In this document: one piece after another, positions 1-26,060 of the stretch | Layout of the letters: every line of letters begins with the position of its first letter | Position numbering within the stretch: position 1 is the first letter of the stretch | From: Candidatus Binatia bacterium | GTDB taxonomy: Bacteria; Desulfobacterota; Binatia; UBA9968; CAXXLF01 | Length of the DNA: 33,670 nucleotides | Reading direction: 5' to 3' | NCBI GenBank assembly: GCA_036443615.1 | Contig: JAZFYO010000326.1 | Coordinates: forward strand, 1 to 33,670 | Program-made: the position numbers and the translations under genes | Notes under the pieces: generated by a model | Database searches by the model: none | The model's input: the letters and a program-made list of their open reading frames with translations, nothing else | Told to the model about the DNA's origin: nothing

Positions 1-128
1 AGCTTCTTTTCCGGCTCCAGGTACGCCTTCCTGCGAAAAACCTCAAAGTATTCATCGTGGGCAAGCGTGTCAGACTGAAAGAGAGAAGCTACAGTTTCCT
101 CCATAGTCGGACCAGCCCCGTCGCGCAT
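1..128 (-). CDS. hypothetical protein, N-terminal fragment (runs off window start)
   Basis: Too short for the ORF track. Minus-strand ATG at 126..128, with AAGGAGG (rc of 134..140) 5 nt upstream. Reads MRDGAGPTMEETVASLFQSDTLAHDEYFEVFRRKAYLEPEKK and stays open to position 1. No family recognised. Confidence 0.35.
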   Translation of the reverse strand, partial: MRDGAGPTMEETVASLFQSDTLAHDEYFEVFRRKAYLEPEKK

Positions 129-254
129 AGAAACCTCCTTCTTATCCGCGAAATGATCCATTTTGTTACTCGGTATCTCTCTCAGTTTGCCATTCAAAGT
201 TCACGTGGATAAAGTATTTTTAATCCACAGCCTGTGCCGACACCCAAGGGCTTG

Positions 255-850: not shown

Positions 851-1258
851 ATGAAAGACAAGAATAAGACCTTTTTCATAACTCTTGGCCTCTCGCTCCT
901 CTTACTCTCTGGTGGATCTCTCCATGCTGAGACGATGCGATTTACGGAGAATCTCCGCAGCGAGACAGTCCTACTTCCCCCGTCGGCGCCGGACCGAGGT
1001 CAACTTATCCTAATTTCCTTTGTCACGATCGCCGCTGAAGCAGAAGCCATAGTCACAATGGCTGTTTATGATGATCCTCAAACCAGATGGTCAGTCGATC
1101 TCTTGGAGCTTTATGATGAGGCAGGGGCTCTTCTGTCAGTTAGCTGGGTTGATAAATTCGGCATCCGCAGGACCGCCATGGACCGCGGACTTCTTCAAGA
1201 AGAGACTTCCAGGCTCGAGGGAGTTTTTGTCCTTCTTCCAGAAGGAACTCCAGCATGA
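851..1258 (+). CDS. exported protein of unknown function
   Basis: 135-aa ORF. AAGGAG lies about 10 nt upstream of the ATG. N-terminal signal peptide MKDKNKTFFITLGLSLLLLSGGSLHA|ET. No family recognised. Confidence 0.55.
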   Translation: MKDKNKTFFITLGLSLLLLSGGSLHAETMRFTENLRSETVLLPPSAPDRGQLILISFVTIAAEAEAIVTMAVYDDPQTRWSVDLLELYDEAGALLSVSWVDKFGIRRTAMDRGLLQEETSRLEGVFVLLPEGTPA

Positions 1259-1438: not shown

Positions 1439-1769
1439 CAAGAAGAACAGAGACCGTGCGAGAAAAACAAACCTCAACGCTTTTTCTGCTTTGCTACCAG
1501 GGAAGGAAAAATGACGAAATTAATAAGTGATCACCGGAAATTGAGCATATGGAAGCTCATCTTCCTGAAAAGCAAGGTGAAGGGTGATTTTTACCGCATT
1601 GGGAACTTTCTCCTGGCCTCTCCTTGTTTAGCAAAGCAAAGGCCAAAGAAAGCCAAGTTCCTTACAGAGATCAAAGAGGAGTACCTGATACTTCTTGAAG
1701 GCAGGCAAGGTTTGGCGGCGCAGGAACTGGAGAATGAGAAGCTTCAAAAAAAACCGAGGAGAAATGATT

Positions 1770-1847
1770 ATGGAATCACTTGTTGTCCATCTCATCTTGG
1801 CATCGCTCATTGTATTGTTCATGGTTTGGATTTTTTTTACTGCTTGA
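1770..1847 (+). CDS. candidate 25-aa hydrophobic mini-protein (paralog 2)
   Basis: My own reading: ATG 1770, TGA 1845..1847, MESLVVHLILASLIVLFMVWIFFTA. Good SD, GAGGAG 8 nt upstream. Single predicted TM span. Confidence 0.3.
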   Translation: MESLVVHLILASLIVLFMVWIFFTA

Positions 1848-1953
1848 CGAGTGCCATAGAGATTGTGTGGGAGGGAAGTGCCTTCACAAATAAGTGAGAA
1901 TTGACACCTAAAATAAGAATAGAGGAGATGATCATTAAAGGAGGTTAATAGTT

Positions 1954-2577
1954 ATGTTTAATTCGTTCAATATTCCAAAAGCAATCATGGCTGGTTTCTT
2001 AGGAACGGTGGCCATGACCATCCTGATGTATGCTTGGCCTCTGATAGGCCTTCCCAGCATGGACATCATAGCCGCACTGGGGGGGGTGTTTCCCTTCAAT
2101 ATGTCACCTTACGTCCTGGGATCGCTGATTCATCTCAGCATAGGGATCTCAATGGCTCTGATCTATGCCTTGTTTTTTGCCTCTCGGCTACCCGGTCCAG
2201 GTTGGCTACGCGGTGCGCTGTTTTCCTTTCTTCCCTGGATTTTCGCCATAACTCTCTTCGGCCCAGGCCTTCAACTAGCCAGTGAATTCTTCAAGGGAAA
2301 AGAGGCCATTGCGGCCAACCCGTGCTCTATATCGCAGCCCTGTCAAGTCCGCCCAGCGAATCCTTGTGCGGTGAACCAACCCCGATCCAATCCATGCGCT
2401 GCAAAGGTAAGCAATCCATGTGGAGTCAGTGCCAATCCTTGCGCTGTGGCGAATCCCTGCGCAGTGACCACGGCGCCCTCTAGGGGGCCTTCCCCCCAAG
2501 TTATGAGCTTGATTGTCCACCTGCTCTTCGGTATGGTTCTAGGTGCCGCCTACAGACCTTCAGGTGAGTTAGTTTAA
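1954..2577 (+). CDS. integral membrane protein with a Cys-rich [N/Q]-P-C repeat loop
   Basis: 207-aa ORF with AAAGGAGG 7-8 nt upstream. About four hydrophobic helices in residues 1-110 and one C-terminal helix (LIVHLLFGMVLGAAY). They are separated by ANPCSISQPCQVRPANPCAVNQPRSNPCAAKVSNPCGVSANPCAVANPCAV (nt 2314..2466). No family name recognised. Confidence 0.75.
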   Translation: MFNSFNIPKAIMAGFLGTVAMTILMYAWPLIGLPSMDIIAALGGVFPFNMSPYVLGSLIHLSIGISMALIYALFFASRLPGPGWLRGALFSFLPWIFAITLFGPGLQLASEFFKGKEAIAANPCSISQPCQVRPANPCAVNQPRSNPCAAKVSNPCGVSANPCAVANPCAVTTAPSRGPSPQVMSLIVHLLFGMVLGAAYRPSGELV

Positions 2578-2578
2578 G

Positions 2579-3106
2579 ATGAAATTCGCGTTGCTTGGAC
2601 AATACCCGGGACTCCAATCTACATCTGAGAGAAGAACCCGCCTGTTTCGAAGAACGGTGCTGTGGACTTTGATGCTGTTCCTTCTGCCCACAGGACCGGT
2701 CTGGGCCGACTCCCACGTCACCAGTGAAAACGGAGTGGTGGTGGTGACCCTGACCCAGACCCCTTGCCTTTTTGTCGAGGCAGAGGCCAATCCCCAAACC
2801 TACCGCTCCAACAAAGCTGCGGAATGCATTGCCATCAACAAACACACCGCAGGTCAGCGCCAATTCATGCCTCTTCACTTAAGAGCCGGGAAAGTGATCT
2901 TCCGAGTCGCAAATAATAATGTCCCCTATGAGCTAGGCTTTTGGGTCCGGGGACAGGGACTCGGACGCGTCACCCTGCCCTCGGTGTCAGGCGGCGGGCT
3001 GATGCCTGGCCAGACCAAAGAGTACGCTATCACCTTAAAGAAGGGGGCATACTGGTACAGCTGCCCGCTGAATCCTACGCCCAACTATCCGCTCATCGTC
3101 GAATAG
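2579..3106 (+). CDS. exported cupredoxin-like protein (canonical Cu ligands not evident)
   Basis: 175-aa ORF. The ATG sits 1 nt after the upstream TAA, indicating translational coupling. RR-containing signal-like N-terminus (SERRTRLFRRTVLWTLMLFLLPTGPVWA|DS). The C-terminal YWYSCPLNPTPNYPLIVE resembles the Y-x-Y-x-C end of cupredoxins, but the His/Met ligand pattern is missing. Confidence 0.6.
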   Translation: MKFALLGQYPGLQSTSERRTRLFRRTVLWTLMLFLLPTGPVWADSHVTSENGVVVVTLTQTPCLFVEAEANPQTYRSNKAAECIAINKHTAGQRQFMPLHLRAGKVIFRVANNNVPYELGFWVRGQGLGRVTLPSVSGGGLMPGQTKEYAITLKKGAYWYSCPLNPTPNYPLIVE

Positions 3107-4678: not shown

Positions 4679-5812
4679 ATGTTATTTTGGTCAATTATCA
4701 TTTTCAGCGCAACGATGTTCGTTGCCTACGCCAACGGGGCAAACGACAACTTTAAAGGAGTGGCCACACTTTTAGGAAGCGGGACGAGCGACTACCAAAA
4801 GGCCCTTTGGTGGGCCACGGTAACGACTTTTGCCGGCTCCATGACGGCATTATTTTTGGCCACAAAGTTAGTGGAAACCTTCCAGGGAAGGGGCCTTATT
4901 CCCGAAAGCCTGACAGGATCGGGGCCCTTTGCCGCTGCCGTCATTCTGGGAACGGGCCTAACGCTATTTTTGGCAACCAAGATCGGGGCGCCCATCTCAA
5001 CTACACACAGCCTAACAGGCGCTCTCATCGGAAGCGGCCTTATGGCTGTAGGTTCGGACTTTGGCTTTGTTGCTCTGTGGGACAAGTTTTTAATTCCGCT
5101 CCTTTTGAGCCCGTTGATAGCGGTGGGCTTGGCGGTTATCGTTTATCCCCTTTTCAGGCTCAGCGCTACCTTTATTGGTTTAACGAGAGAGACTTGCATC
5201 TGTGCAGGAGAGGAGCTCGTCCCCGTAGCCATTACACCGGGAGGACACTTCATGACTACCGGAACCAAGAGCGTGCAAGTTGTCGTGGATCAAGAAGCAA
5301 ACTGTGCGGAGAGCTATACGGAAAAGATTTTCGGTGTCAATGCCCAAACAGCCCTCGGCTCTCTTCATTATTTAAGCGCAGGGGCTTTAAGCTTTGCCAG
5401 AGGCCTCAACGACACCCCAAAGATCGTGGCCCTATCCCTGACTGCAGGAACTCTCGACCTACGTTGGTGTGTGTATCTGGTTGCACTTTTCATGGCTCTA
5501 GGCGGCCTGTTTCATGCGCAGAGAGTGGCTGAAACGATGAGCAAGAGAATCACAGAAATGGACTTCGGCCAAGGTTTCGCCGCCAACCTGGTTGCCAGTT
5601 TTCTGGTCATCTTTGCCTCGAGGTGGGGTCTTCCCGTTTCAACCACCCATGTTTCCTGTGGGGCCTTATTTGGGATCGGCGCAGTCAACGGCAAAGCCCG
5701 ATGGGGTGTCGTTCGAAGTATTGTCCTGGCCTGGGTGTTGACCCTCCCTGTCGCGGCACTGCTGTCGGGGGGGATATTCACGGTGTTGCAAGATCTCATC
5801 GGTAAAGGATGA
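4679..5812 (+). CDS. PiT-family inorganic phosphate/oxyanion transporter
   Basis: 377 aa and polytopic. The duplicated PiT signature is present (ANGANDNFKGVATL near the N-terminus, ARGLNDTPKIVAL in the second half), along with PISTTHSLTGA and PVSTTHVSCGA repeats. Confidence 0.85.
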   Translation: MLFWSIIIFSATMFVAYANGANDNFKGVATLLGSGTSDYQKALWWATVTTFAGSMTALFLATKLVETFQGRGLIPESLTGSGPFAAAVILGTGLTLFLATKIGAPISTTHSLTGALIGSGLMAVGSDFGFVALWDKFLIPLLLSPLIAVGLAVIVYPLFRLSATFIGLTRETCICAGEELVPVAITPGGHFMTTGTKSVQVVVDQEANCAESYTEKIFGVNAQTALGSLHYLSAGALSFARGLNDTPKIVALSLTAGTLDLRWCVYLVALFMALGGLFHAQRVAETMSKRITEMDFGQGFAANLVASFLVIFASRWGLPVSTTHVSCGALFGIGAVNGKARWGVVRSIVLAWVLTLPVAALLSGGIFTVLQDLIGKG

Positions 5813-5824
5813 CCTAAGCGGAAA

Positions 5825-7009
5825 GTGCAAAAGAAACTTATTAAAAACATGACCGCTTCTGTAAAGTCACATCTTCAAACAATTAGGTTCGACCGCAATG
5901 AGCTTTCGGGGGCATTTGGGGATATCGGCACAGACATGCCCCTAATTGTCGGGATGATCCTCGCCTCCAGGCTGGATAGTGCAAGTGTCTTGATCATGTT
6001 TGGCGCGATGCAGATCCTCACCGGTTTCACCTATAGGATTCCCATGCCCGTCCAGCCACTGAAGGCTATGGCGGCAATTGTGATTGCACAGAATTTGACT
6101 GGAAAAATTCTTTACGGAGGTGGGTTAGCTATAGGAATAACAATGCTCTTGTTAACAGTGACGGGATTAATTGATTGGCTAGGCCGAGTGATTCCCAAAA
6201 GCGTTATTCGAGGAATCCAGTTTGGATTGGGACTCAAACTCGCATCAATTGCACTCAAGAATTACGTGGGGGCGGATAGCATCCCTGGTTACTGGCTGGC
6301 AGCAATTGGCTTCGTGATAACTATCCTACTGATAGGTAACCGGAGGTATCCCCCAGCCATATTTGTCATAATTTTAGGCATCGTTTATGCTTTTTTCTTT
6401 AAATTAGACGCAGCCACGATAGTTCAAAGCGTAGGATTTAGCCTGCCTAATATTTATATGCCCACCTTACCGGATGTTTTTGCAGGGTTTCTAATTCTGG
6501 CGCTACCACAAATTCCACTCTCTCTTGGCAACTCGATATTTGCGACAAGGCAGATGACCCAAGACTTGTTTCCAGATCGATTAATTACTGTGCGTAAAAT
6601 AAGTCTCACCTATTCGTTGATTAATATTATCAACCCTTTCCTAAGCGGCATTCCTACCTGTCATGGCTCGGGTGGAATAGCGGGACATTATGCCTTCGGG
6701 GCGCGGACGGGGGGATCTGTAGTGATTTACGGTTTGATTTACCTGGTTTTAGGATTCTTTTTCAGCGGAGGCTTTGAAAAAGTTATTCAAGTTTTTCCTT
6801 TGCCTATTTTGGGGGTAATTCTTCTCTTCGAAGGTTTAACATTGATGCTTTTATTACGGGATGTTTCCGAGTCCAAGCAGGATTTCTCCATTGCTATATT
6901 GGTAGGACTGATGGCCAGCGGCCTGCCGTATGGTTTTGTTATTGGACTAATTGTCGGGACACTGTTGGCTTACCTGCCGCGAACGCGACTCGCCGGATTA
7001 GCAAAGTGA
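5825..7009 (+). CDS. putative sulfate/molybdate transporter (MOT1/SulP-like)
   Basis: 394 aa and polytopic. Has LSGAFGDIGTDMPL and CHGSGGIAGHYAFGARTGGS motifs, typical of MOT1-type (PF16983-like) transporters. The track start is GTG 5825; the in-frame ATG at 5849 is an alternative. Confidence 0.7.
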   Translation: MQKKLIKNMTASVKSHLQTIRFDRNELSGAFGDIGTDMPLIVGMILASRLDSASVLIMFGAMQILTGFTYRIPMPVQPLKAMAAIVIAQNLTGKILYGGGLAIGITMLLLTVTGLIDWLGRVIPKSVIRGIQFGLGLKLASIALKNYVGADSIPGYWLAAIGFVITILLIGNRRYPPAIFVIILGIVYAFFFKLDAATIVQSVGFSLPNIYMPTLPDVFAGFLILALPQIPLSLGNSIFATRQMTQDLFPDRLITVRKISLTYSLINIINPFLSGIPTCHGSGGIAGHYAFGARTGGSVVIYGLIYLVLGFFFSGGFEKVIQVFPLPILGVILLFEGLTLMLLLRDVSESKQDFSIAILVGLMASGLPYGFVIGLIVGTLLAYLPRTRLAGLAK

Positions 7010-7146: not shown

Positions 7147-8697
7147 ATGACAATGTCACCCACGATCAGAGAGATCCCAACGGCGATCCGTCACATGATG
7201 ATCGGAGACGACCCTTTCGATCACCAGCTCATCGAAAACTGCCATCCCTCGAATTGGATCAATCCAACGGCCTCCGGCAAGTATAACCTGGTTGTTGTCG
7301 GAGCCGGCACGGCCGGATTAGTCAGCGCTGCCGGCGCTGTCGGGCTAGGGGCCAAGGTAGCCCTCATCGAAAGGACCCTGCTAGGCGGCGACTGCCTGAA
7401 CGTGGGCTGTGTCCCTTCCAAGGGGATGATCCGGGCCTCTCGAGCCGCCTTTGACGTCCTGGATGGGAGTACGTTTGGAGTTCACCTCAACTCCGCGCCT
7501 GGAATTAACTTTTCGGAAGCGATGGAGCGCATGCGCCGGCTCAGAGCCAACATCAGCAAAAATGACTCCGTCCACCGGTTCAAGAATCTGGGGGTTGACA
7601 TCTATCTTGGAAATGCAAAGTTTGTTGGTCCTTCCACCCTAGAGGTCGATGCTGCCTCCCTGGAATTTGACCGTGCTGTGATCGCTACTGGGGCAGCCCC
7701 CGCGAAGTCATCCATCCCTGGTCTGGAGGAAGCCGGCTTCTACACCAATGAGACCATCTTTACCCTGACCGAACTTCCGCGCCGGATGGTAGTTGTCGGG
7801 GCAGGTCCCATCGGTTGTGAGCTGGCCCAATCGTTCCAACGGTTTGGAAGCCAGGTCACCTTGCTAACGCACGGCACACGGATCCTACCCCAGGAGGACG
7901 GCGACGCCGCCGCAGCCATTTGCAGGCAGATGGAGCGTGAGCGGATGCGAATCCTCTATAGTGCCGTGCCTTTACAGGTGAAGAAGAGAGGGTCAGAAAA
8001 AATCCTGTTGCTCTCGCGCGATGGACGGGAAGAAGAGCTGGTCTGTGATGCCATCCTCGTCGGGATCGGCCGCAAGCCCAACGTAGAGGGGCTGGGACTG
8101 GAGGCAGCCGGCGTAAAGTTTTCTCCCAACGGCGTAGCGGTAGATAACCGGCTGCGGACGACGAATCCGCGCATCTACGCCGCAGGCGATATCTGCTCCC
8201 GCTTCAAGTTCACCCATGCCGCCGACGCAATGGCACGCATCGTTCTCGCAAACGCGCTATTCTTCGGGCGCCGTAAAGCAAGTGCCTTGACCATACCTTG
8301 GTGTACCTACACCGATCCGGAAGTCGCTCATGTAGGGTACTACGAAGCCGAGGCGCGCACGGCAGGTATCGAGGTGGCTACCCTCACGGAGAAACTCAGC
8401 CACAATGACCGCGCCATCTTAGATGGTGAGGGTGAGGGATTCGCCCGGATCCATTACAACAGGAAGGATGGTAAAATCCTCGGTGGAACCATCGTAGCCC
8501 GCCATGCAGGAGAAATGATCGGCGAGCTGACCCTGGCCATAACGACAGGGCAAAAGGTAAGCGTTCTCGCATCCACCATTCACCCCTATCCTACTCAGGC
8601 TGAAGTACTGAAAAGGATCGGCGACGACTATATGCGGCAGAGACTCACACCAACTTTAAAGAAGATATTCGAGAGGTGGTTTGCCTGGAAAAGGTAG
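7147..8697 (+). CDS. class I pyridine nucleotide-disulfide oxidoreductase (MerA/Lpd-like flavoprotein disulfide reductase)
   Basis: 516 aa. Has FAD GxGxxG (VVVGAGTAGL), the redox-active GGDCLNVGCVPSK, NAD(P)H-binding VVVGAGPIGCE, and the dimerisation motif HPYPTQAE. There is no NmerA domain and no C-terminal Cys pair, so I do not call it MerA. GGAGG abuts the ATG at 7147, so the ATG at 7153 is the more likely start. Confidence 0.85.
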   Translation: MTMSPTIREIPTAIRHMMIGDDPFDHQLIENCHPSNWINPTASGKYNLVVVGAGTAGLVSAAGAVGLGAKVALIERTLLGGDCLNVGCVPSKGMIRASRAAFDVLDGSTFGVHLNSAPGINFSEAMERMRRLRANISKNDSVHRFKNLGVDIYLGNAKFVGPSTLEVDAASLEFDRAVIATGAAPAKSSIPGLEEAGFYTNETIFTLTELPRRMVVVGAGPIGCELAQSFQRFGSQVTLLTHGTRILPQEDGDAAAAICRQMERERMRILYSAVPLQVKKRGSEKILLLSRDGREEELVCDAILVGIGRKPNVEGLGLEAAGVKFSPNGVAVDNRLRTTNPRIYAAGDICSRFKFTHAADAMARIVLANALFFGRRKASALTIPWCTYTDPEVAHVGYYEAEARTAGIEVATLTEKLSHNDRAILDGEGEGFARIHYNRKDGKILGGTIVARHAGEMIGELTLAITTGQKVSVLASTIHPYPTQAEVLKRIGDDYMRQRLTPTLKKIFERWFAWKR

Positions 8698-8701
8698 GGA
8701 A

Positions 8702-9355
8702 ATGACGGCAACCAGAAGAAAAATACTAATCTTTTCGGGACTCCTAGTGCTTATCGGGTTAGCCTACTGGCAGCGGAGCCACTTACGGATAGAACTCCTG
8801 GTGGAACAGATCAGGGCCCTGGGTCCATGGGGACCGGCGGCCTATATTATTCTCTACCTCATCGCCCCACCCCTTTTCATCCCTGGTTCCGTCATCACCC
8901 TTGCGGGAGGAGCTCTCTTTGGACCACTCTGGGGAACCCTCTACACCATCTTCGGAGCAACCGGTGGCGCCTCTCTGGCCTTCCTCATCGGACGCTACCT
9001 GGCCGGAGATTGGGTCGAGAACAAAGCCAAGGGAATATTGAAACGTCTAAAGGACGGTGTGGAAAAGGAGGGGTGGCGTTTTGTTGCCTTCACCCGATTA
9101 GTCCCGCTTTTCCCATTCAATGTTTTGAACTACGCCTTCGGTCTAACTAAGATCAGGTTCTTTCACTTCGTGGCTGCCTCCTTCTTCTGCATGCTCCCCG
9201 GGGCCGCGGCTTACACATTTATCGGCTATGCAGGACGTGAGGCAGCTCTGGGAGGAAAAGGATTGGTATTCAAAATAGCTGCCGCATGTGGGCTTGTTCT
9301 ATTCGTATTCATGCTTCCCAGACTTATCAAGGCCGTAAAAGGAGATAGCAAATAG
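8702..9355 (+). CDS. TVP38/TMEM64 (DedA-superfamily) membrane protein
   Basis: Motif LFIPGSVITLAGGALFGPLWGTLYTIFGATGGASLAFLIGRYL. The track start is TTG 8681, which overlaps the upstream gene; I prefer the in-frame ATG at 8702 (MTATRRKILIF...). Confidence 0.8.
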   Translation: MTATRRKILIFSGLLVLIGLAYWQRSHLRIELLVEQIRALGPWGPAAYIILYLIAPPLFIPGSVITLAGGALFGPLWGTLYTIFGATGGASLAFLIGRYLAGDWVENKAKGILKRLKDGVEKEGWRFVAFTRLVPLFPFNVLNYAFGLTKIRFFHFVAASFFCMLPGAAAYTFIGYAGREAALGGKGLVFKIAAACGLVLFVFMLPRLIKAVKGDSK

Positions 9356-9365
9356 GCTTCCTCGA

Positions 9366-10046
9366 ATGCTGCGTATCTCGGTTATTATTCCAGCGCTGAA
9401 CGAAGAGAGCATAATTGCCTCGACACTAGAGGCCCTCAGGCCGCTAGCACCGACGGAGGTTATTGTGGTTGATGGCGGAAGCACGGATCACACCAGGGAA
9501 ATAGTTGCGCGTACAGACGCCACGTTAGCCTCTTCCGCACGCGGGCGAGCAGAGCAGATGAATCACGGAGCTAGGCTGGCTCGCGGCGATGTCTTCCTTT
9601 TCCTCCACGCAGATACCCACCCCCCCCCCTCCGCCATAAGTGAAATCCGGTGTGCCCTGGAGGACCCTCGATGTGTAGGAGGAAGATTTGATGTGAGGCT
9701 CGAGGGTAATCATAGGATCTATGGGCTGATTGGCGCCCTGATCAATCTCCGCTCCCGCTTGACTAAGGTAGCCACGGGAGATCAAGCAATTTTTGTCCGC
9801 CGAGAAGTATACGAAGAAATCGGAGGGTTTCCGAACCTCCCCTTAATCGAGGATATCGCCTTTTCCCGTTACCTAAAGAAAAAAGGGAAGGTGGCCTGTC
9901 TCAAGAGTCGGGTTACGACATCCACACGTCGATGGGAAAGGGAGGGGATATGGCAGACTGTTCTAAGAATGTGGGCGCTCAGGCTTCTCTACTTGGCAGG
10001 TGTATCTCCATTCCGCCTTAAGCGCTTCTACGGCGATGCCCGCTAA
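9366..10046 (+). CDS. family-2 glycosyltransferase, TIGR04283-like
   Basis: 226 aa. Motifs: SVIIPALNEE, VVDGGSTD, LFLHADT, GDQAIFVRR, PLIEDIAFSR, TSTRRWE. Size and motif order match what I recall of TIGR04283; no HMM was run. Confidence 0.7.
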   Translation: MLRISVIIPALNEESIIASTLEALRPLAPTEVIVVDGGSTDHTREIVARTDATLASSARGRAEQMNHGARLARGDVFLFLHADTHPPPSAISEIRCALEDPRCVGGRFDVRLEGNHRIYGLIGALINLRSRLTKVATGDQAIFVRREVYEEIGGFPNLPLIEDIAFSRYLKKKGKVACLKSRVTTSTRRWEREGIWQTVLRMWALRLLYLAGVSPFRLKRFYGDAR

Positions 10047-10050
10047 AGAG

Positions 10051-10641
10051 CTAAGGCAAGCCCCTTAACGCCTGCAAGACCTGTTCATTGCTTGCCCTCT
10101 TTCTGTAGTCCACCTCGACAAATTTCCAACGCACCACTCCCCCCTTGTCGATCACATAGGTTGCGGGGTGGGGCCATCCAGGACCGTCAGGATTCAGAAT
10201 CCCATAACGGTCGATCACCTTGTGTTTTTTGTCCTCGAGCAGAGGAAAATCAAAATCTCCCGGATATTCTTTTCTCAGATCCAAAACAAACTTTTTCGAT
10301 TGCTCATGGGAATCGATACTAACGGCCAGTATCCGAACCCTTTCTTTCAATTTCTTTGTCAAGAGACTTTTCAGCTTCCCGAGCTGCTCTCCGCACCACG
10401 GTCACCAATGGCCACGGTAAAAAACAAGGACCACATTCATTTTGCCGCGAAAATCGGAAAGCGAAATTGCCCTCCCGTCCATATTTTCTAAGGTAAAATC
10501 CGGCGCCCTGTCCCCGACCTTAACTCTCTCCAAATCTGTGAGTCTTAAACCGGCCTTATCTTTGGGTCCTAACTGGGCGTATACTGAAGATATTAAAAGG
10601 AATATCAGTAATACCAAAGTATTGAAGGTGTGTTGAACCAT
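10051..10641 (-). CDS. exported AhpC/TSA (redoxin) family protein with in-frame UGA, a probable selenocysteine (U80)
   Basis: Track ORFs 10402..10641 and 10051..10362 are in the same frame, separated only by TGA (10402..10404). Read-through gives ...[21 protein letters not shown]...[12 protein letters not shown]...[11 protein letters not shown]..., with UGA at the first Cys of the W-C-x-x-C motif. The N-terminal signal peptide is [22 protein letters not shown]. Confidence 0.7.
10361..10391 (-). promoter_or_regulatory. candidate bacterial SECIS hairpin
   Basis: Minus-strand RNA starting 11 nt after the UGA: GAGAG-CAGCU-[CGGGA]-AGCUG-(AAAAGU bulge)-CUCUU. The G-rich apical loop begins about 20 nt after the UGA. 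Folded by eye only. Confidence 0.45.
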
Positions 10642-13338: not shown

Positions 13339-15798
13339 ATGGAAGCCAGCCTTAAGCAGCAAAAGGTGCCCGTCTATATTGAAGACGAGATGCGTCAGTC
13401 CTATATGGACTACGCGATGAGCGTCATCATTGGCAGGGCGCTGCCGGATGTACGCGATGGCCTAAAGCCGGTGCATCGGCGAGTTCTCTATGCCATGTAC
13501 GATATGGGAAATAGCTGGAACAACCCCTACAAAAAATCCGCCCGCCTGGTTGGCGACGTGATCGGAAAGTACCATCCTCATGGCGACGTGGCAGTCTATG
13601 ACACTATCGTGCGCATGGCCCAGGATTTTTCCATGCGTTACCTTTTGGTGGATGGACAGGGGAACTTCGGCTCGGTAGATGGGGATCCTCCGGCCGCCAT
13701 GAGATACACGGAGATCCGGATGGCGCAAATGGCCGGGGAGATCTTGGCCGATATCGAGAAAGATACCGTCAATTTTGTTCCCAACTACGATGACTCCATA
13801 AGTGAACCTACCGTCCTTCCTTCCCGCATTCCTACCCTCTTAATCAATGGTGGCTCGGGAATCGCGGTGGGGATGGCTACCAATATCCCGCCGCACAACC
13901 TAGGAGAAGTCGTGGACGGTTTGGTGGCCATGGTGGAAAAGCCGGATATCAGCATCGATGAACTCATGAACTACATTCCGGGCCCCGACTTTCCCACGGG
14001 GGCTTACATCCACGGCCGGGAGACCATCCGCCAAGCGTACAGGACAGGCCGAGGATCCATCCAGATGCGAGCAAGGTTCTCAACCGAGACGGTAAAGCGG
14101 ACAGGCAGAGAGCAAATCATTATCCATGAGATTCCCTTCTTGGTGAACAAGGCCCGTCTCATCGAGCAGATCGCGGGGCTAGCACAGGAGAAGAAGGTCG
14201 ATGGCATTGCAGACTTGCGCGACGAATCTGACCGGGAAGGGATGCGAGTTGTGATCGAACTCAAGCGCGACGCCGTGCCAGACGTGCTCATCAATCAGCT
14301 TTACAAGCATACATCCTTACAGGAGTCCTTTGGGGTCAATATGCTGGCCATCGATGACGGCCGACCCAGGCTCCTCAATCTGAAAGATGCCTTGAAGGCC
14401 TTCCTGGATCACCGCAGTGAAGTGGTGACTCGCAGAACCGCGTATGACCTGCGCAAGGCGGAGGAACGTCTGCACATCCTGGAAGGGTTAAAGATTGCGT
14501 TGGACCACTTAGATCAGGTCATCACGCTCATTCGGCAATCCACTGATCCCAAGACCGCCAAGGAAGGTCTTATGGCCAGCTTTGGTTTGTCGGACGTTCA
14601 GGCTCAGGCAATCCTGGAGATGCGGCTGCAGAGGTTGACGGGGTTGGAAAGAGAAAAGATTGTCAAAGAGCACCAGGAAACCACGGAGAACATCAACCAA
14701 CTACGGGCGATTCTGGCAGACGAGAGAGAAATCTTTCGAATTATTGTCGAGGAGATCAAGGATATCAAGGAACGGTACGGAGACCCGCGGCGAACCGAGA
14801 TTGTGGATCAATCAGAGGAGATCTCGGTGGAGGACCTCATCGTCGATGAAGACATGGTGGTCACCGTATCCCACGAAGGCTATATCAAGCGTAACCCGGT
14901 TACGCTTTATCGGGCGCAACACCGGGGTGGAAAAGGGAAAGTTGGGGCGACGACGAGGGACGAGGATTTTGTCGAATATCTCTTCGTTGCCTCCACCCAT
15001 GCCTACATTCTCTTCTTTACCACCATTGGGAAAATCTACTGGATAAAGGTCCATGAACTCCCCCAGGCCGGAAGGGCCGCTAGGGGGAGACCTATCGTTA
15101 ACCTCCTCCACCTAGGAGAAGGAGAGAAGGTTTCGGCCTTTCTCCCGGTCCGTGAATTCCAGGAAGGACACTTTGTTCTCTTTGCAACCAAAGGTGGATT
15201 AGTCAAAAAAACCGAGCTCATGGCTCATTCCAATCCACGGTCCACAGGGACTCGCGCGATCGCCCTGGAGCCAAAAGACGAGGTCATCGGTGTCCGCCTC
15301 ACCGACGGACAACAGGCGGTCCTCCTCTCAACCCTATCGGGCCAGTCCATTCGCTTCAAAGAAGAGCAGGTCCGTGCCACCGGTAGGGGAACCTATGGAG
15401 TTATCGGGGTCAACTTGGACAAAGGCGATCAGGTGGTGAGCATGGAGATCCTGAACCAACAGGCCAGCATCTTAACCGTGGCGGAGAACGGTTACGGTAA
15501 GCGCACCGGCATTGACGAGTACCGTCCCCAATCGCGCGGGGGTAAAGGGATCATCACGATGAAGACCACTAAAAAGACCGGGCACGTGATCGGGGTTCAG
15601 CAAGTAACCGATGATGACCAGCTCATGCTGGTAACAAATCGAGGCAAGATTATTCGCCTTAGGCTTAAAGACATCAGGACGATCGGGCGGAACACCCAGG
15701 GGGTCCGTCTTATCGAGATGGAAGAGGGCGAGCGGGTCGTCTCGCTCGCAAGGGTGGCGGAGAAGGAAGATGAGGACAAACTTCCGCAGGCTCAATGA
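13339..15798 (+). CDS. gyrA: DNA gyrase subunit A
   Basis: 819 aa. Motifs: [12 protein letters not shown], the QRDR-type [14 protein letters not shown], active-site AAMRYTE, the GyrA-box-like QHRGGKGK, and a repeated beta-pinwheel C-terminal domain. Confidence 0.97.
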
Positions 15799-21112: not shown

Positions 21113-21715
21113 ATGCCTATAATTGTTGATAAAAATAAAAAACGCAGAGAGATTCTCCAGGCAGCTATGCAGGTCTTTGCTAGAGAGGGCTACCACCGAG
21201 CAAAGATCGAGGCAGTCGCAGAGGAAGCCGGTATAGGCAAAGGAACCGTTTACGAATACTTCAGGAGTAAGACCGATCTCTTCCTGGCACTACACGAGCA
21301 TATGTTGTCCGAGTTGAAGAACTTTTACATGAAAGAGCTAGCCGAGATTCGCGAGCCCTCTCTTATGCTAGAGCGGTTCATCGCGGCGGCTTTTCAGACC
21401 TTTCGCCTATGGGAGCCATTTTTTCTGGTGTTTTTCGATTTCTGGGCCGAAGGTGGCCGGGGGGAACAGCAAACCCTTCTCCAGACGCGCCTCAGGGATG
21501 CATATGCGGCCTCGCGGTCCGATGTGGCGGCTATCATCACCGCAGGGGTTAAGGACGGGGCTTTTCGGTGCGAATACCCGTTATTAGCTGCCTCCAGCAT
21601 CCTGGCCTCCTTAGACGGACTTGTCCTTCAGTGGCTCTGCGACCGCGAGGCTTTCGACCTAGACTCGATGCGTGAAATGTTTTCCCAAACAATCTTACGG
21701 AGCCTCCGTCCATGA
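21113..21715 (+). CDS. TetR/AcrR-family transcriptional regulator
   Basis: 200 aa. The N-terminal HTH is REILQAAMQVFAREGYHRAKIEAVAEEAGIGKGTVYEYFRSKTDLF. Confidence 0.85.
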   Translation: MPIIVDKNKKRREILQAAMQVFAREGYHRAKIEAVAEEAGIGKGTVYEYFRSKTDLFLALHEHMLSELKNFYMKELAEIREPSLMLERFIAAAFQTFRLWEPFFLVFFDFWAEGGRGEQQTLLQTRLRDAYAASRSDVAAIITAGVKDGAFRCEYPLLAASSILASLDGLVLQWLCDREAFDLDSMREMFSQTILRSLRP

Positions 21716-22962
21716 CGAGACGCAACCTCTCCTTTCTTATCATCCTGGCGCTGGCGCTCCTGACGGCAGGTGGTGTTTATCTGATCCAGGCGATAGATGA
21801 ACCACGCCAGCCCAAGCCGGAACCAATCCCCGTGCCAGTGGAAGTAGCCAATATTGCTCCACGAGACTTCACTTACCGCATAGAGTCATTGGGGACCATC
21901 CAGGCCATCCGAGAGGCAGCAGTCGGTGTCGAAGTCTCGGGCCCCATCACGCTGATCCCTCCAGAGGTCGCCCTAGGTGCTACCGTAGAGCAAGGGACGT
22001 TGCTAGCTGAAATTGATCCTACCCCTTTTCGAATCGAGCTGAGCCGTCGAGAAGCCCTTGTGGCCCGCGCCCGGGCAGAGGTCCGGGGGCGGGAGGTTGA
22101 TCTGGCTCGACAAAAAGCACTCATCCCCCTTAGTCGGATGAAGCTTCGTCTTGCCCGTGCCGAGCATAAACGACTGGAGGATCTGCTTGAGAGAGAATTG
22201 ATCGCCCGGCAAGATTTAGAGCGTACCGAAATGGTCGTCCGTGGCATTCAGGAGGAGCTGGAGCGAACCGAAAGTGGGCTGCGGGAAGCGGAGGTGCAGC
22301 ACGCGGTCACGAAAGCTGACCTGGCAAGAGCCCTGGCTGAGAAGGAGCGGGCGCGGGAGGATCTGGCGGACACCCAGGTGCGAGCACCCTTCGCAGGAGT
22401 CGTTGCCGAAAAACAGATTACTCTAGGAGAGCAGGTCGCCCCCGGCAAGGTCCTTTTTCGTCTAGTGGACCTTACCGTCGTGAAGCTCCTAGTACGGATT
22501 CCTCCAGATGACATCGATTTTCTGCGTACCGGCATTATAGCGGACGTGAGCGTTAGCGGCTTACCCGGGAAGTTTCAAGGTCGGGTCGAACACATCGGAC
22601 CCAGCGCAGACAGCGAAACACGGACTTTTCCTGTAGAGGTGCTGGTTGAAAACAAGGCCTCAAATCGACTCCTTCCCGGAATGTTTGCCCGAGCCAAAAT
22701 TCCGGTGCGCACCTATCCACAAGCCATCCTGATTCCGCGCACAAGTGTTCTCAGGGACCATGGAGAACCGGTAGTTTTTATTGCCGACATGAAGCGCGGG
22801 ACTGCACACCGCCGCCCCGTAATCATCTCTAGGACCTTTGGATCTCGCCACCTCATCCATGAGGGACTCCAAGGCGGGGATCTTCTGATCATTACCGGAC
22901 AACGACTGCTCCTGGAGGGCGCCGCGATTCGTGTGACGGGGAATCTAGAGCTTAAGCCATGA
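21712..22962 (+). CDS. efflux RND periplasmic adaptor (HlyD/MFP family)
   Basis: 416 aa. ATGA overlap with the tetR stop. N-terminal TM, a long coiled-coil (LSRREALVARARAEV...ERAREDLADTQVRAPFAGVV) and beta-barrel motifs. Confidence 0.85.
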   Translation: MTRRNLSFLIILALALLTAGGVYLIQAIDEPRQPKPEPIPVPVEVANIAPRDFTYRIESLGTIQAIREAAVGVEVSGPITLIPPEVALGATVEQGTLLAEIDPTPFRIELSRREALVARARAEVRGREVDLARQKALIPLSRMKLRLARAEHKRLEDLLERELIARQDLERTEMVVRGIQEELERTESGLREAEVQHAVTKADLARALAEKERAREDLADTQVRAPFAGVVAEKQITLGEQVAPGKVLFRLVDLTVVKLLVRIPPDDIDFLRTGIIADVSVSGLPGKFQGRVEHIGPSADSETRTFPVEVLVENKASNRLLPGMFARAKIPVRTYPQAILIPRTSVLRDHGEPVVFIADMKRGTAHRRPVIISRTFGSRHLIHEGLQGGDLLIITGQRLLLEGAAIRVTGNLELKP

Positions 22963-25900
22963 AAACCCTGATAGAGTTCTCCGTCCACAATCGGGTCTTG
23001 GTAAACCTGCTCACCCTATTCGTCCTAGGGGCAGGGATAGTGACCTATCTCCGGATGCACCGGGAGATGTTTCCAGAGTTTTCCCGCCAGGCGGTCAAGG
23101 TTATGACCGAGTATCAAGGGGCGTCCCCAGTGGAGGTGGAGAAGCTCATCACGGCAAAAATCGAGGAGGAGGTAGCGGATATCGACGACTTGGATGAGCT
23201 CTTGTCAGTGTCACAGGAAGGTCAGTCAGAGATCCTACTGAAGTTCCAACCCGATACCGATATGAGTCGAGCCCTGAGTGACGTTCGGGCGGCCCTGGAC
23301 AATGTCACCGATCTCCCAGAAGAGGCCGAGGAACCTAAGGTGAGCGAAGTAAAGTCCACCTTCCCTGTGATCACTGTATCTTTGTCAGGGGACATCGACG
23401 AGGGAACGCTCCAGGAGATGGCCAAGGACCTCCGTGACGAGCTGCGTCGAGTCCGAGGAGTGGCCGCTGTCGGTATCCTAGGGATCCGGGAGCGGCAGAT
23501 CTGGGTTGAGGTGAACCCCGAACGACTCGACCAGTACCTCCTGAGCCTGGATGACCTCAGGACGGCTATTGCCAGCCACAACCGGAACGTCCCTGGAGGA
23601 ACCTTGAAGACTCCCCGAGGAGAGGTCCTCTTACGAACTTTAGGTGAGGCAGAAGGGGTCCGTGACGTGGAACGAATCATTCTCCGGGCCAAGAAGGACG
23701 GCCATCCCCTGACCATAGGAGAGGTCTCAACGGTACGGGAGACATTCAAGGATGCCACAACCATGGCACGCTTCAACGGACAACCAGCCATCAACCTGGT
23801 GGTCGCCAAGGAACGAAATGGAGATGCCATTGACATCGCCAGACGCATCCGACTCTTAGTGGAGAAAGTCAGGGGAAGGCTGCCGGAGACCGTAACCGTT
23901 GGGCTCTACAATGACTTTTCAGTCTTTATTCAAAACCGGCTGAATACATTGCGGTGGAGCGGAATGGTGGGGCTCGTCATTATCTTAACGACCCTATGGG
24001 CCTTCGTACGGGCCCGAATTGCCTTTCTGACCGCACTTGGAATTCCATTCGCCATGATGGGTGGGATTATCCTCATGTCGGCGTATGGGATCAGCCTGAA
24101 TATGGTTTCGCTCTTTGGCCTGATCCTGGTCTTAGGCCTCTTGGTTGACGATGCCGTTATTGTGACCGAAAACGTCTATCGCTACGTTGAAAATGGATTG
24201 GACTCCCGGCAAGCAGCCATCAGGGGGACCACAGAAGTGGCCTGGCCGGTAGTGGCAACGGTAATTACCACGGTATCCGCATTTGTCCCGCTATTGATGA
24301 TCCCAGGCACCATGGGAGTCTTTCTCTCAGTCATCCCTGTGGTGGTCTCCTTTACCCTGCTCGCGTCGCTCCTGGAGGTCCTTCTGATCCTCCCATCTCA
24401 CCTGGCAGACATTATCACCCCAGCATACGCTCAACAGGTCCGCCATCGGGAGCTTCCCTGGTTGTTATGGTCCCGCAACACTTACAGGAGTCTACTGGCC
24501 ATGGCGCTGAGATGGCGTTATGTGTCGGTTGGCTGCCTGGTCTCCCTAACCATGGTGCTAGGGGCTGCGGCCCTCTACCGAATTCCCTTTGTCTTGTTTC
24601 GGGAGTTCGAGTCTTCCCAGTTCATGGTCAACTTTGAAACCTCTCCTGGATCTAAGATCGAGGATACGCTCGAGATCGCCAAGAAGGCCGAGCAGGTGGG
24701 GCTAAATTTACCCGCCGGGGAACTCAAGTCACTGGCGACCAACGTAGGGATTAGCTTCCTGGACGTTCACCGGGCAGAACGCGGTCCCAACCTGGCGCAG
24801 CTGATGGTGGAGCTCGATGAGGACCGGCGGCAAAGCGTGGACGACGTGATCGCGGAACTAAGAGCCGGCATGGAGCAAATCCCAGGTATCACCAAGATCC
24901 AGTTCCTAAAGATCCAGGCCGGCCCTGGGGGGCCGGCCATCGAGGCGCGAGTCGTGGGGGACAAGATTCAAGTCCTGCGCAAACTGGCAAATGAAATGAA
25001 AGGGTTCCTGCAAGGGATTTCCGGCGTACGAGACATTCGGGATGACTTTACAGAGGGAAAGGAGGAACTACAGATCACCCTGCGATCCGAGGCGCGAGCC
25101 CTGGGACTGGACCTGGGTCAGATTGCGCGCCAGGTCCAGCAGGGATTCCTGGGGGTAGAGGCCTCAACCATCCAGCGGCGGGACGAGAATGTACCTATAA
25201 TCATTCGCTTTCCTGAAGCGCTTCGAGGAAGCCTGGAGACCGTTGCCAGGATGAAGCTCACGCTGCCCTCGGGCCAACGCGTATTCCTCCGGGACGTAGC
25301 CCAGCTGGAAACCGCCGTTGGCACAAGCAAGATTCGGCGTGATGACCAGAAGCGCGCCATCACCGTCTTAGCCGATATCGATTCTCGCGAGGCGAATGTC
25401 TACAAGGTCACAGAACGTTTGAAGCGGAAGTTCAGCAATGTAGGCAGCCGCTTCCCCGGATACCGCGTCATTGTCAAGGGAGAACGCCAGGAGGTGGAAG
25501 AATCACTGGCATCCCTGCCACAGATCTCGGTGATCTCCCTTTTGTTGATCTATTTCATCCTAGGCTCACTCTTCAAATCCTTCGTCCAGCCTTTCATAGT
25601 CATAGCCGCTATCCCCTTTGCCGTTAATGGAGTGATTATCGGACACCTCATTATGGGAGACCCCCTGAGTTTTCTCTCCATGATGGGGCTGATTGCGCTC
25701 GCGGGGATAGTGGTCAACGATTCTCTGATCCTAGTGGATTTCATCAACCGGGCCCGCAAAGAAGGGGTGCCACGAGACGAGGCGATCCTGGTCTCTGGGG
25801 TAGCACGCCTCAGGCCAGTTCTGCTCACTACGATTACCACTGTGGGCGGCCTGATCCCCCTGGCCTTCTTCGCCACAGGACAAGCCAAGTTTCTATCTCC

Positions 25901-26060
25901 CATGGCCGTCGCCGTGGTCTGGGGTCTCTCCTTTGCCACCATTCTCACACTCATCCTTATCCCCTGCCTGTATGCCATGTTGGACGACCTCGCGGCTCTG
26001 CTCAGGCGTTTCTTCGGTATCCAGACAAGGCCTTTGCTCCCCACCACCTCCGAACCCTGA
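22959..26060 (+). CDS. RND efflux transporter permease (AcrB/HAE family)
   Basis: 1033 aa. ATGA overlap with the adaptor gene. Duplicated 6-TM modules with VDDAVIVTENV and VVNDSLILVDF motifs. Confidence 0.92.
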   Translation: MKTLIEFSVHNRVLVNLLTLFVLGAGIVTYLRMHREMFPEFSRQAVKVMTEYQGASPVEVEKLITAKIEEEVADIDDLDELLSVSQEGQSEILLKFQPDTDMSRALSDVRAALDNVTDLPEEAEEPKVSEVKSTFPVITVSLSGDIDEGTLQEMAKDLRDELRRVRGVAAVGILGIRERQIWVEVNPERLDQYLLSLDDLRTAIASHNRNVPGGTLKTPRGEVLLRTLGEAEGVRDVERIILRAKKDGHPLTIGEVSTVRETFKDATTMARFNGQPAINLVVAKERNGDAIDIARRIRLLVEKVRGRLPETVTVGLYNDFSVFIQNRLNTLRWSGMVGLVIILTTLWAFVRARIAFLTALGIPFAMMGGIILMSAYGISLNMVSLFGLILVLGLLVDDAVIVTENVYRYVENGLDSRQAAIRGTTEVAWPVVATVITTVSAFVPLLMIPGTMGVFLSVIPVVVSFTLLASLLEVLLILPSHLADIITPAYAQQVRHRELPWLLWSRNTYRSLLAMALRWRYVSVGCLVSLTMVLGAAALYRIPFVLFREFESSQFMVNFETSPGSKIEDTLEIAKKAEQVGLNLPAGELKSLATNVGISFLDVHRAERGPNLAQLMVELDEDRRQSVDDVIAELRAGMEQIPGITKIQFLKIQAGPGGPAIEARVVGDKIQVLRKLANEMKGFLQGISGVRDIRDDFTEGKEELQITLRSEARALGLDLGQIARQVQQGFLGVEASTIQRRDENVPIIIRFPEALRGSLETVARMKLTLPSGQRVFLRDVAQLETAVGTSKIRRDDQKRAITVLADIDSREANVYKVTERLKRKFSNVGSRFPGYRVIVKGERQEVEESLASLPQISVISLLLIYFILGSLFKSFVQPFIVIAAIPFAVNGVIIGHLIMGDPLSFLSMMGLIALAGIVVNDSLILVDFINRARKEGVPRDEAILVSGVARLRPVLLTTITTVGGLIPLAFFATGQAKFLSPMAVAVVWGLSFATILTLILIPCLYAMLDDLAALLRRFFGIQTRPLLPTTSEP

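Follow-up and report, generated by a model that had tools for sequence, protein, structure and literature searches.

Several described systems hold or pass on thiophilic species through cysteine thiols. Mer systems encode together a periplasmic Cys protein (MerP), a small polytopic membrane protein that exposes Cys pairs (MerT) and the disulfide reductase MerA, and the thiophilic species passes from thiol to thiol. In the SoxAX-SoxYZ system, the GGCGG arm of SoxY is a flexible, Cys-bearing covalent carrier. Metallothioneins and phytochelatins are Cys-rich and poorly structured, and their capacity for soft metals and metalloids scales with the number of Cys residues. The cupredoxin fold, for its part, can be repurposed without a type-1 copper site, as in the Cu(I) chaperone CupA. 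Here we describe two adjacent genes in a 33,670-nucleotide stretch of a Candidatus Binatia bacterium (contig JAZFYO010000326.1, assembly GCA_036443615.1; the whole stretch is called the window below) that share features with all of these systems. Gene 1 encodes a small membrane protein carrying an array of [N/Q]-P-C units (the NPC array), and gene 2 encodes an exported protein with a predicted cupredoxin fold. We tentatively propose, from sequence, fold and gene order, that they belong to a periplasmic poly-thiol module that would capture and hand off a thiophilic metalloid or chalcogen, and that is linked in this genome to arsenic organification genes. Loci (L numbers) and listed homologous proteins (P numbers) are cited by label where they need to be told apart.

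The array occupies residues 121–171 of gene 1, which read ANPCS-ISQPCQ-VRPANPCA-VNQPRSNPCA-AKVSNPCG-VSANPCA-VANPCA. Its six NPC units and one QPC unit hold all seven Cys residues of the protein. We found 304 homologues of gene 1. Across the 120 listed, 731 of 742 Cys residues follow Asn-Pro and another 8 follow Gln-Pro, so that 739 of 742 stand in an [N/Q]PC context in proteins of 50–92% identity. Copy number ranges from 2 to 12, mostly 5 to 7, with Cys residues spaced 6–10 residues apart in the context N/Q-P-C-[A/S/G]. At the DNA level, 2359..2462 contains five copies of the unit AAYCCNTGYGS, compared with an expectation of 0.59 for the whole window; the window total of nine was reached by none of 100 shuffles. 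Third codon positions differ among the units (CCT, CCA and CCC; TGT and TGC) and Tandem Repeats Finder reported no DNA repeat, which argues for selection on the peptide rather than recent slippage. A preliminary description of this DNA had already counted the seven cysteines, recognized them as the only ones in the protein and read the synonymous variation in this way, and all three points hold. It had also allowed that the loop might prove absent or variable in orthologues; the motif is strict there, with copy number varying.

Gene 1 belongs to the DUF6789 family. A profile search matched PF20587 over residues 7–106 at 46.8 bits (cutoff 27.1), and no other Pfam or NCBIfam family scored above threshold in the same scan, with DUF1440 falling below it. 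PF20587 was also found on 118 of the 120 listed homologues (the exceptions are P0086 and P0088). An AlphaFold model built with 55 homologues has four transmembrane (TM) helices, at residues 7–31, 52–75, 83–114 and 181–199. The array lies between TM3 and TM4, in agreement with the earlier placement of the loop between hydrophobic helices of a small polytopic protein, and residues 119–175 are modelled as disordered, with a predicted local distance difference test (pLDDT) score below 50. A fold search against the PDB gave no match. Mean Lys plus Arg counts in the family are 1.45 for the N-terminus, 0.47 for loop 1, 1.31 for loop 2 and 1.25 for the C-terminus. By the positive-inside rule, this distribution places both termini in the cytoplasm and has loop 1 and the NPC loop facing the periplasm; taken together with the modelled helices, it indicates that the NPC loop is probably periplasmic.

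The loop is not a general property of DUF6789 proteins. A canonical member from Dehalococcoidia (locus L020) has 152 residues and a short TM3-TM4 loop without Cys, whereas the corresponding loop of gene 1 has about 62 residues, unlike that of canonical DUF6789 proteins of about 150 residues. We therefore regard the array as an insertion in one DUF6789 subfamily. Three residues are invariant across the alignment of NPC-bearing DUF6789 proteins: D37, in periplasmic loop 1, and H60 (TM2) and H189 (TM4), which sit at equal depth about 8 residues from the periplasmic helix ends. Within the membrane core, they may bind a metal or a haem. Counterparts of all three can be discerned by eye in the single L020 sequence. 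A literature search on DUF6789 returned nothing relevant.

Gene 2 is a member of a much larger family, with 2,428 homologues returned, none of which carries a Pfam domain. Their sources are Binatia, Methylomirabilales, Thermodesulfobacteriota and numerous sediment and marine metagenomes. The family has three invariant Cys residues (C63, C83 and C162) and further invariant residues at E67, E69, N87, R109, Y117 and R124. The structure model is a beta-sandwich with a pLDDT of 87.7, and Foldseek matched it in the PDB to the Cup domain of EfeO (7wgu, E 9e-6) and, at E values of about 1e-5, to the CuA domain of the N2O reductase NosZ and to auracyanin (2aan). Query-normalised TM-scores of 0.40–0.45 for these matches agree with a Greek-key beta-sandwich of the cupredoxin type. 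In a weak hhalign alignment to a canonical cupredoxin (E 0.024), C162 matches the copper-ligand Cys, and Y117 takes the place of the first His ligand. The 121 aligned sequences of the family share no conserved His or Met, and the His...Cys...His...Met ligand set is accordingly missing. Scans of Pfam and NCBIfam, including the cupredoxin profiles PF00127 and PF13473, gave no match at E values up to 0.1, and the gene 2 profile found no relevant relative among PDB sequences. Gene 2 is thus modelled as a periplasmic cupredoxin fold that has lost its copper site and kept the ligand Cys together with an extra invariant pair, Cys63 and Cys83.

A Tat signal was considered for gene 2 and rejected. A conserved S/T-R-R-x-F-L-K motif is lacking: the leader of gene 2 reads SERRTRLFRR, and most of the 60 leaders inspected among homologues have no RR pair and resemble Sec signals. 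Of the earlier characterization as an "RR-signal exported beta-rich" protein, export and the beta-sandwich therefore stand and the RR signal does not. The view of it as cupredoxin-like and ligand-less is confirmed, with the qualification that the ligand Cys is kept. Profile and structure searches placed neither protein in a well-characterised family, as had been suspected, although gene 1 does match DUF6789; gene 2 matches no model. In the annotation of a Chondrinema plasmid, one distant homologue is called a "cupredoxin domain-containing protein"; it lies near a metallophosphoesterase gene and a DUF2064 gene (TIGR04282 score 92, below the cutoff of 134). Literature searches on the NPC array and on the gene 2 family found no paper.

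The NPC array is not confined to membrane proteins. When the loop alone was used as query, a word-indexed homology search gave no match and an exhaustive HMMER (phmmer) search returned signal-peptide proteins of several kinds: small secreted proteins consisting solely of NPCAAK-type repeats, proteins with NPC repeats on both sides of a CXXCH-containing monohaem cytochrome c domain of the SoxA/TsdA type, and proteins in which the repeats flank a DUF5666-like domain. All carriers found other than the DUF6789 proteins bear an N-terminal signal peptide. Copy number outside the gene 1 family reaches 20, and this variability suggests an additive role in capacity or avidity rather than a fixed folded site. 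Pfam and NCBIfam have no model for the repeat and returned only spurious low-complexity Cornifin matches, and a full-text literature search on NPCAAK-type strings found no paper. The arrays contain neither GMTCxxC motifs nor CxC or CC clusters. In the loci examined, selenocysteine replaces Cys neither in the arrays (as NPU) nor at the Cys positions of gene 2. Judged by these sequence contexts, the NPC array is a portable, exported poly-thiol module of predicted intrinsic disorder. Genes of this kind may be mis-annotated or missed by gene callers: at L003, a 137-residue signal-peptide protein of NPCAAK repeats is encoded at 2078..2491 (+), and the public gene call is an 'AAHG' repeat protein on the opposite strand (2185..2505, -).

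The cytochrome carriers share one layout, with a signal peptide, NPCAAK repeats, the monohaem cytochrome c domain and further NPCAAK repeats, and were seen in L052, L072, L083, L087, L100 and L104–L107 (including P0242 and P0247). In L083 and L087 the domain reaches or barely exceeds the PF21342 (SoxA/TsdA) threshold (28–35 bits, cutoff 27); the other NPC-cytochromes score below the cutoff. Besides an invariant CxxCH, these proteins have another invariant Cys, in VQxC..PM, about 38 residues past the haem His. A C554/ExtKL-like multihaem cytochrome follows in L083, L087 and L104–L107, and in L104–L106 it bears a thioredoxin-like domain. The independently found P0242 (L104–L106) and P0247 (L107) have the same multihaem cytochrome as their next gene.

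The array and gene 2 show a strong positional link. We sampled 80 gene 2 loci from metagenomes, leaving 77 after removal of duplicates. Of the 28 NPC arrays in these loci, 27 lie on the same strand as gene 2 and no more than 4 kb upstream of it, a region that makes up 19.6% of strand-bases (binomial p ~2e-18, not corrected for kinship). Upstream flanks of 2 kb or more are available for 37 loci, and 13 of these carry an array. The linkage appears in at least four gene architectures: NPC-cytochrome-NPC / DUF6969 / gene 2 / DUF302 / YeeE; small NPC protein / C554-like multihaem cytochrome / gene 2, followed in some loci by YeeE; small NPC protein / gene 2; and the arrangement of the window, DUF6789-NPC / gene 2 / ArsM. 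In the Methylomirabilales locus L003, two NPC proteins are encoded about 4 kb upstream of gene 2. Since the upstream arrays sit on such varied scaffolds, the coupling of genes 1 and 2 proposed earlier holds across lineages for the NPC module and not for the DUF6789 scaffold.

Most NPC and gene 2 neighbourhoods contain c-type cytochromes, YeeE/YedE, DUF302, DUF6969 or MsrAB, and these neighbours would point to sulfur or selenium, or to general thiol redox chemistry, as much as to arsenic. YeeE/YedE and DUF302 occur downstream of gene 2 in 9–11 of the 77 loci. Both have been located in the sox clusters of Sulfitobacter (PMC11034169). Beyond that location and the status of some as selenoprotein families, a literature search on DUF6969, DUF302, YeeE and DUF3179 gave nothing relevant. 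The gene that usually separates the NPC-cytochrome from gene 2 is DUF6969, with DUF302 and YeeE/YedE after gene 2; DUF6969 is His-rich (HYPHDD, YYYHAH, HGHFH) and was seen at L072 (6169..6936) and about ten other loci.

The specific arrangement found in the window is much less widespread. The order DUF6789, gene 2, ArsM-like was found only in the window, L001/L002 (a Binatia metagenome-assembled genome, MAG), L012, L024 and L025, all close relatives whose flanking genes are 73–88% identical. Gene 2 starts (ATG at 2579) one nucleotide after the TAA of gene 1 ends at 2577, as the preliminary description had pointed out, and the same spacing recurs only in the 96%-identical L024; in L001, L012 and L025 the gap is about 110–180 nucleotides. 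Other NPC-DUF6789 genes have neither gene 2 nor arsM beside them. In L008, L009/L010 and L011 a divergent pair of genes for an extracytoplasmic function (ECF) sigma factor and a zf-HC2 anti-sigma factor lies upstream, in L014 only anti-sigma and cyclase genes adjoin, and L013 and L015–L017 also lack both partners.

A functional link to the ECF sigma/anti-sigma pair was entertained and then downgraded. A small conserved gene (x136/x171) and other genes are shared among these loci, which are broadly syntenic, and part of the neighbourhood pattern is plain synteny of related genomes. A sigma-70 gene adjoining NPC-DUF6789 in L013 was judged uninformative. The anti-sigma factors beside NPC-DUF6789 have a periplasmic domain of about 250 residues. 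A soluble CdaS/CdaA-like diadenylate cyclase gene directly follows NPC-DUF6789 in L008 (8566..9150), L009 (8681..9271), L011 (8640..9239) and L014 (2854..3390). Upstream of gene 1, the window encodes an exported, conserved 135-residue protein (851..1258, +) that co-occurs with NPC-DUF6789 in L008, L009 and L012, and, cut by the window start (3..161, -), a conserved protein of 136–171 residues that is found near NPC-DUF6789 in L001, L002, L008, L009, L011, L012 and L014.

Table 1. Genes of the NPC/gene 2 cluster and its downstream neighbours in the window.
Feature	Coordinates	Strand	Basis
Gene 1, DUF6789-family inner-membrane protein with inserted NPC array	1954..2577	+	207 aa, PF20587, four predicted TM helices
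NPC array, seven [N/Q]-P-C units in the TM3-TM4 loop	2314..2466	+	Sequence, DNA motif, predicted disorder and periplasmic side
Gene 2, exported protein of predicted cupredoxin fold without copper ligand set	2579..3106	+	175 aa, signal peptide, three invariant Cys
ArsM-like S-adenosylmethionine (SAM) methyltransferase, 402 aa	3390..4598	+	NCBIfam and PDB matches
PiT/PHO4-family anion transporter	4679..5812	+	PF01384, E 2e-65; weak CysP-type sulfate permease match
MFS_MOT1 (molybdate-transporter-type) anion transporter	5825..7009	+	PF16983, E 1e-54
MerA/glutathione-reductase-like pyridine nucleotide-disulfide reductase (PNDR)	7147..8697	+	CLNVGC active site
DedA/VTT-domain membrane protein	8681..9355	+	PF09335, E 6e-27
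TIGR04283 'arsenosugar biosynthesis' glycosyltransferase, 226-aa GT2	9366..10046	+	265.6 against a cutoff of 182
Exported ResA/TlpA/Prx-like redoxin with in-frame TGA in GHW-U-PWC, predicted UxxC selenoprotein	10051..10641	-	Translation, PRK03147

The genes that follow the pair give the window its arsenic character (Table 1). As stated in the preliminary description, the pair lies directly upstream of arsM and two transporters, which we identify as an ArsM-like gene followed by PHO4/PiT and MFS_MOT1 genes. The ArsM-like protein scores below the cutoffs of all curated models it matches (NF040538, 348 against 500; PRK11873, 201 against 263; NF038099, 137 against 400). Its best PDB matches are the arsenic methyltransferases 4kw7 and 4fr0 (E 1e-33), the arsenic-binding Cys residues (YGCG, SNCV and GC..GA) align with those of both structures, and the catalytic Cys aligns to that of CmArsM. 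The protein continues for about 65 residues past the match to the ArsM model, with a Cys-rich tail ending ...SPSGICGPGGNCCP. The reductase scores 740 bits with PRK06370.1-3 (cutoff 620) and 368 with the MerA model TIGR02053 (cutoff 454), and its C-terminus, ...FERWFAWKR, has no Cys pair; it is thus not a MerA by either measure. DedA/VTT and PNDR genes are the commonest downstream partners of gene 2, within 3 kb in 21 of the 77 loci and sometimes fused. A fusion of DedA (COG0398) and PNDR is on record without a known function (PMC10127716).

Other loci repeat parts of this cluster. A TIGR04283 gene is also present in L001, L012, L026 and L091, and L003 carries TIGR04282 at 190.9 (cutoff 134), so that members of the 'arsenosugar' gene set above cutoff occur in both the window and L003. 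The distant locus L091, whose gene 2 is 59% identical, has MsrAB just upstream of gene 2 and, about 1.3 kb downstream of it, a DedA-PNDR fusion, TIGR04283 and TIGR04282; after a gap, a partial ArsM copy lies about 6 kb downstream of gene 2. ArsM was found downstream of gene 2 in 3 of the 77 sampled loci. Gene 2 therefore recurs with ArsM in at least two lineages, and the co-occurrence with arsM that had been suggested as a check is seen in the close relatives and in L091 and is otherwise rare among gene 2 loci. No match to arsS, arsR, arsC or acr3 was found in the window open reading frames (ORFs) scanned, which excluded three ORFs of at least 120 residues (1511..1897, 13339..15798 and 31451..31975); no radical-SAM family, ArsS (TIGR04167) included, had a match in the scanned set, and the arsS gene may lie outside the 33.7 kb. 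Literature searches on the TIGR0428x names gave nothing relevant. On the evidence of gene order, the arsenic context is real for the sub-architecture of gene 2 with DedA-PNDR.

The last gene of the cluster appears to encode a selenoprotein. With U written as C, the redoxin matches PRK03147 at E 7e-20; ORF finding reports the gene as two separate ORFs. The in-frame TGA is conserved in L011, L012, L015–L017, L026 and the Dehalococcoidia loci L018–L023. The redoxin lies directly upstream of NPC-DUF6789 in L015–L017 and nearby in L011, L012 and L026, and L018–L023 have two UxxC redoxin copies 0.5–2 kb from a DUF6789 gene without Cys, which makes UxxC redoxin and DUF6789 a conserved pair across two phyla. 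Simple folding of the sequence that follows the redoxin UGA yielded no significant selenocysteine insertion sequence (SECIS) hairpin. Known selenoprotein families include DUF3179, Prx-like proteins and YeeE. In NPC and gene 2 neighbourhoods, L003 (4656..5726) and L015 (4841..5950) each carry a DUF3179 gene whose W-U-PLC motif contains an in-frame TGA, and at L011 (12604..13647) the gene caller reported two adjacent DUF3179 fragments. Further thiol-redox genes include TlpA-like redoxins preceding the small NPC proteins in L009 and L011, and MsrAB among the gene 2 neighbours.

Elsewhere, the window carries core chromosomal genes (gyrB, gpsA, yidC, jag, ispG, proS, pyrF, ribBA and a TetR-regulated resistance-nodulation-division (RND) pump), with gyrA likely present as well, judging by synteny with L001. 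The window is not a mobile island. The best-matching loci belong to Binatia MAGs or to MAGs labelled "Deltaproteobacteria". At 21113..26060 are genes for the TetR regulator, an HlyD/CusB-type membrane fusion protein and the AcrB-type RND pump; we saw no link between them and the NPC array or gene 2. An Rfam scan of the window found no riboswitch or other RNA, and promoter and terminator scans did no better than on shuffled sequences.

Gene anatomy, conservation, fold, predicted topology and linkage are what we observed; from these we infer the thiol reactivity, hand-off and substrate of the following scheme. The DUF6789 inner-membrane protein of this Binatia-like bacterium would present the array in an outward-facing loop, and periplasmic (seleno)thioredoxin-like proteins and cytochromes would keep the NPC thiols reduced. 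The thiols would then capture a thiophilic metalloid or chalcogen at the membrane surface, such as As(III) or a selenium or sulfane-sulfur species, and hand it over to the Cys site of gene 2 in a thiol exchange. From there it could be moved to a membrane importer, DedA here or YeeE/YedE in other lineages, for cytoplasmic processing by the MerA-like disulfide reductase and, in this lineage, also by ArsM and the TIGR04283 transferase. What the different neighbour sets (ArsM/TIGR0428x, SoxA-like/YeeE/DUF302, MsrAB, UxxC redoxin and MerA-like reductase) would have in common is extracytoplasmic covalent thiol chemistry. The gene wiring suggests arsenic in this genome and sulfur or selenium elsewhere.

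Several points weigh against this scheme. The mixture of arsenic-type, sulfur/selenium-type and MsrAB neighbours suggests that the substrate may differ by lineage, or that the common theme is redox rather than binding. Any ligand of the array or of gene 2 would be putative, its choice drawing on sequence, fold and neighbours. In the periplasm, the NPC cysteines may be oxidised to disulfides. The association statistics for the array and gene 2 ignore phylogenetic relatedness, and gene 2 is absent from the 3.2 kb downstream of the NPC-cytochrome in L104–L106. A conserved linkage of the pair, and of DUF6789, with arsM had been anticipated; it is limited to close relatives, and nine other NPC-DUF6789 loci are without both gene 2 and arsM. 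Finally, the 'arsenosugar' names of TIGR04282 and TIGR04283 rest, to our knowledge, on gene association and not on enzyme assays.

Of the other explanations, the one that fares best regards the NPC arrays as SoxY-like swinging arms for sulfane sulfur, thiosulfate or selenium adducts. We think this unlikely. The SoxA/TsdA-like haem domain would load the arms, gene 2 would be the partner thiol protein, and YeeE/YedE or DedA would perform import. It would account for the NPC-flanked cytochromes with their PF21342 matches and extra invariant Cys, for the YeeE/YedE and DUF302 genes shared with sox clusters, and for the MsrAB genes, FGE/EgtB/SenA-like genes and several selenoproteins in the neighbourhoods. 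However, the PF21342 matches are marginal, SoxB, SoxYZ and SoxCD were seen in no locus, and the window has no cytochrome, YeeE or sox genes and an ArsM/TIGR04283 context that points to arsenic.

That context could instead mean that the NPC loop and gene 2 are dedicated binders of As(III) or Sb(III) that feed or protect an ArsM pathway, which we consider improbable. The ArsM-like enzyme keeps its catalytic Cys, TIGR04283 is above its cutoff, and in L091 gene 2 again has DedA-PNDR, TIGR04283, TIGR04282 and ArsM for company. As(III) S3 sites typically have three Cys, the number that is invariant in gene 2, and the adjacent transporter belongs to the PiT family, which is known to admit arsenate. 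An exclusive role in arsenic handling nevertheless sits poorly with the scarcity of ArsM near gene 2 (the three loci mentioned and the partial copy in L091), with arrays found mostly beside cytochromes, YeeE/YedE, DUF302 and DUF6969 and no ars genes, with the lack of arsR, arsC, acr3 or arsS family matches in the scanned ORFs, and with an ArsM-like protein that falls under every NCBIfam ArsM cutoff.

It is also improbable that the arrays serve as a sacrificial or buffering pool of thiols that guards the periplasm against oxidants and electrophiles, recycled by (seleno)redoxins and transporting no specific ligand, with gene 2 and the PNDR serving the same defence. Such a role in envelope stress would leave the transporters, the ArsM/TIGR0428x genes and the cytochrome fusions unexplained, and the strict N-P-C context exceeds what a generic thiol buffer needs. 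The genes that recommend it are the ECF sigma/anti-sigma pairs of L008, L009 and L011 (anti-sigma also in L014), which may reflect plain synteny, the adjacent UxxC redoxin and AhpC/TSA-type genes, the MsrAB genes adjoining gene 2 and a PNDR related to RclA and HOSCN-reductase types, though below their cutoffs. Least probable is an incidental loop, a disordered spacer or disulfide-crosslinking low-complexity segment whose adjacency to gene 2 and arsM is meaningless: very low predicted order, varying copy number, DUF6789-gene 2 adjacency confined to close relatives and Cornifin as the sole Pfam match would suit it, but the near-uniform [N/Q]PC context of homologues as little as 50% identical, the synonymous DNA variation, the recurrence of the motif on unrelated scaffolds and the strong positional association with gene 2 would not.

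If the capture and hand-off scheme is correct, it would establish the NPC array and the copper-less Cys-cupredoxin family, with its more than 2,400 members, as two unannotated elements that are partners in the periplasmic handling of thiophilic elements. It would provide the first functional lead for DUF6789 and for the common gene pair of DedA and disulfide reductase, and would tie both proteins to the incompletely defined 'arsenosugar' set (TIGR04282/TIGR04283, ArsM). It would also bear on the uptake and transformation of arsenic, selenium and sulfur by uncultured Binatia, Methylomirabilales and Thermodesulfobacteriota of soils and sediments. A broader and more doubtful extension is that NPC arrays are an unrecognised class of extracytoplasmic poly-thiol 'arms' that can be grafted onto membrane proteins, cytochromes and small secreted proteins, and that with the Cys-cupredoxins (>2,400) they form the core of a widespread periplasmic covalent-carrier pathway for arsenic, selenium and sulfur. 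Such a pathway would link cytochromes, (seleno)redoxins and importers, as a form of trafficking parallel to Sox and Mer.

The comparison with known systems shows resemblances in design more than in sequence. Like MerP-MerT-MerA, the cluster combines genes for a Cys protein of the periplasm, a small polytopic Cys-exposing membrane protein and a cytoplasmic MerA-type PNDR, and a similar passage from thiol to thiol is proposed here. It has, however, no HMA domain or GMTCxxC motif and no homology to MerT, MerC or MerF, its reductase falls short of the MerA model and has no C-terminal Cys pair, and its exposed thiols lie in a disordered NPC array instead of Cys pairs. With SoxAX-SoxYZ it would share the principle of a flexible Cys-bearing arm acting as covalent carrier, and NPC arrays elsewhere do stand on either side of a SoxA/TsdA-like haem domain that has an additional conserved Cys; but the NPC arm has many Cys residues in N-P-C context and no SoxY/SoxZ fold, and in the window it is mounted on a DUF6789 membrane protein, with no cytochrome and no other sox genes. 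Metallothioneins and phytochelatins resemble the array in being Cys-rich and poorly structured. The array differs in having Cys residues 6–10 apart after Asn-Pro rather than in CxC or CC clusters, and in being extracytoplasmic, membrane-tethered or secreted, where metallothioneins are cytosolic. Gene 1 shares with DUF6789/DUF1440 proteins the PF20587 match, the four-helix core and the invariant D37, H60 and H189, and departs from them in its NPC insertion in place of the short Cys-free loop seen in L020. Gene 2 has the beta-sandwich of cupredoxins, including the EfeO Cup domain without a type-1 copper site, and a Cys at the canonical ligand position, but it has no Pfam match, lacks the His/His/Met ligands, has Tyr117 in place of the first His and adds Cys63 and Cys83. 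By its sequence, the system fails the defining features of both Mer and Sox, and is best described as a putative Cys-rich binding or carrier module joined to a repurposed cupredoxin.

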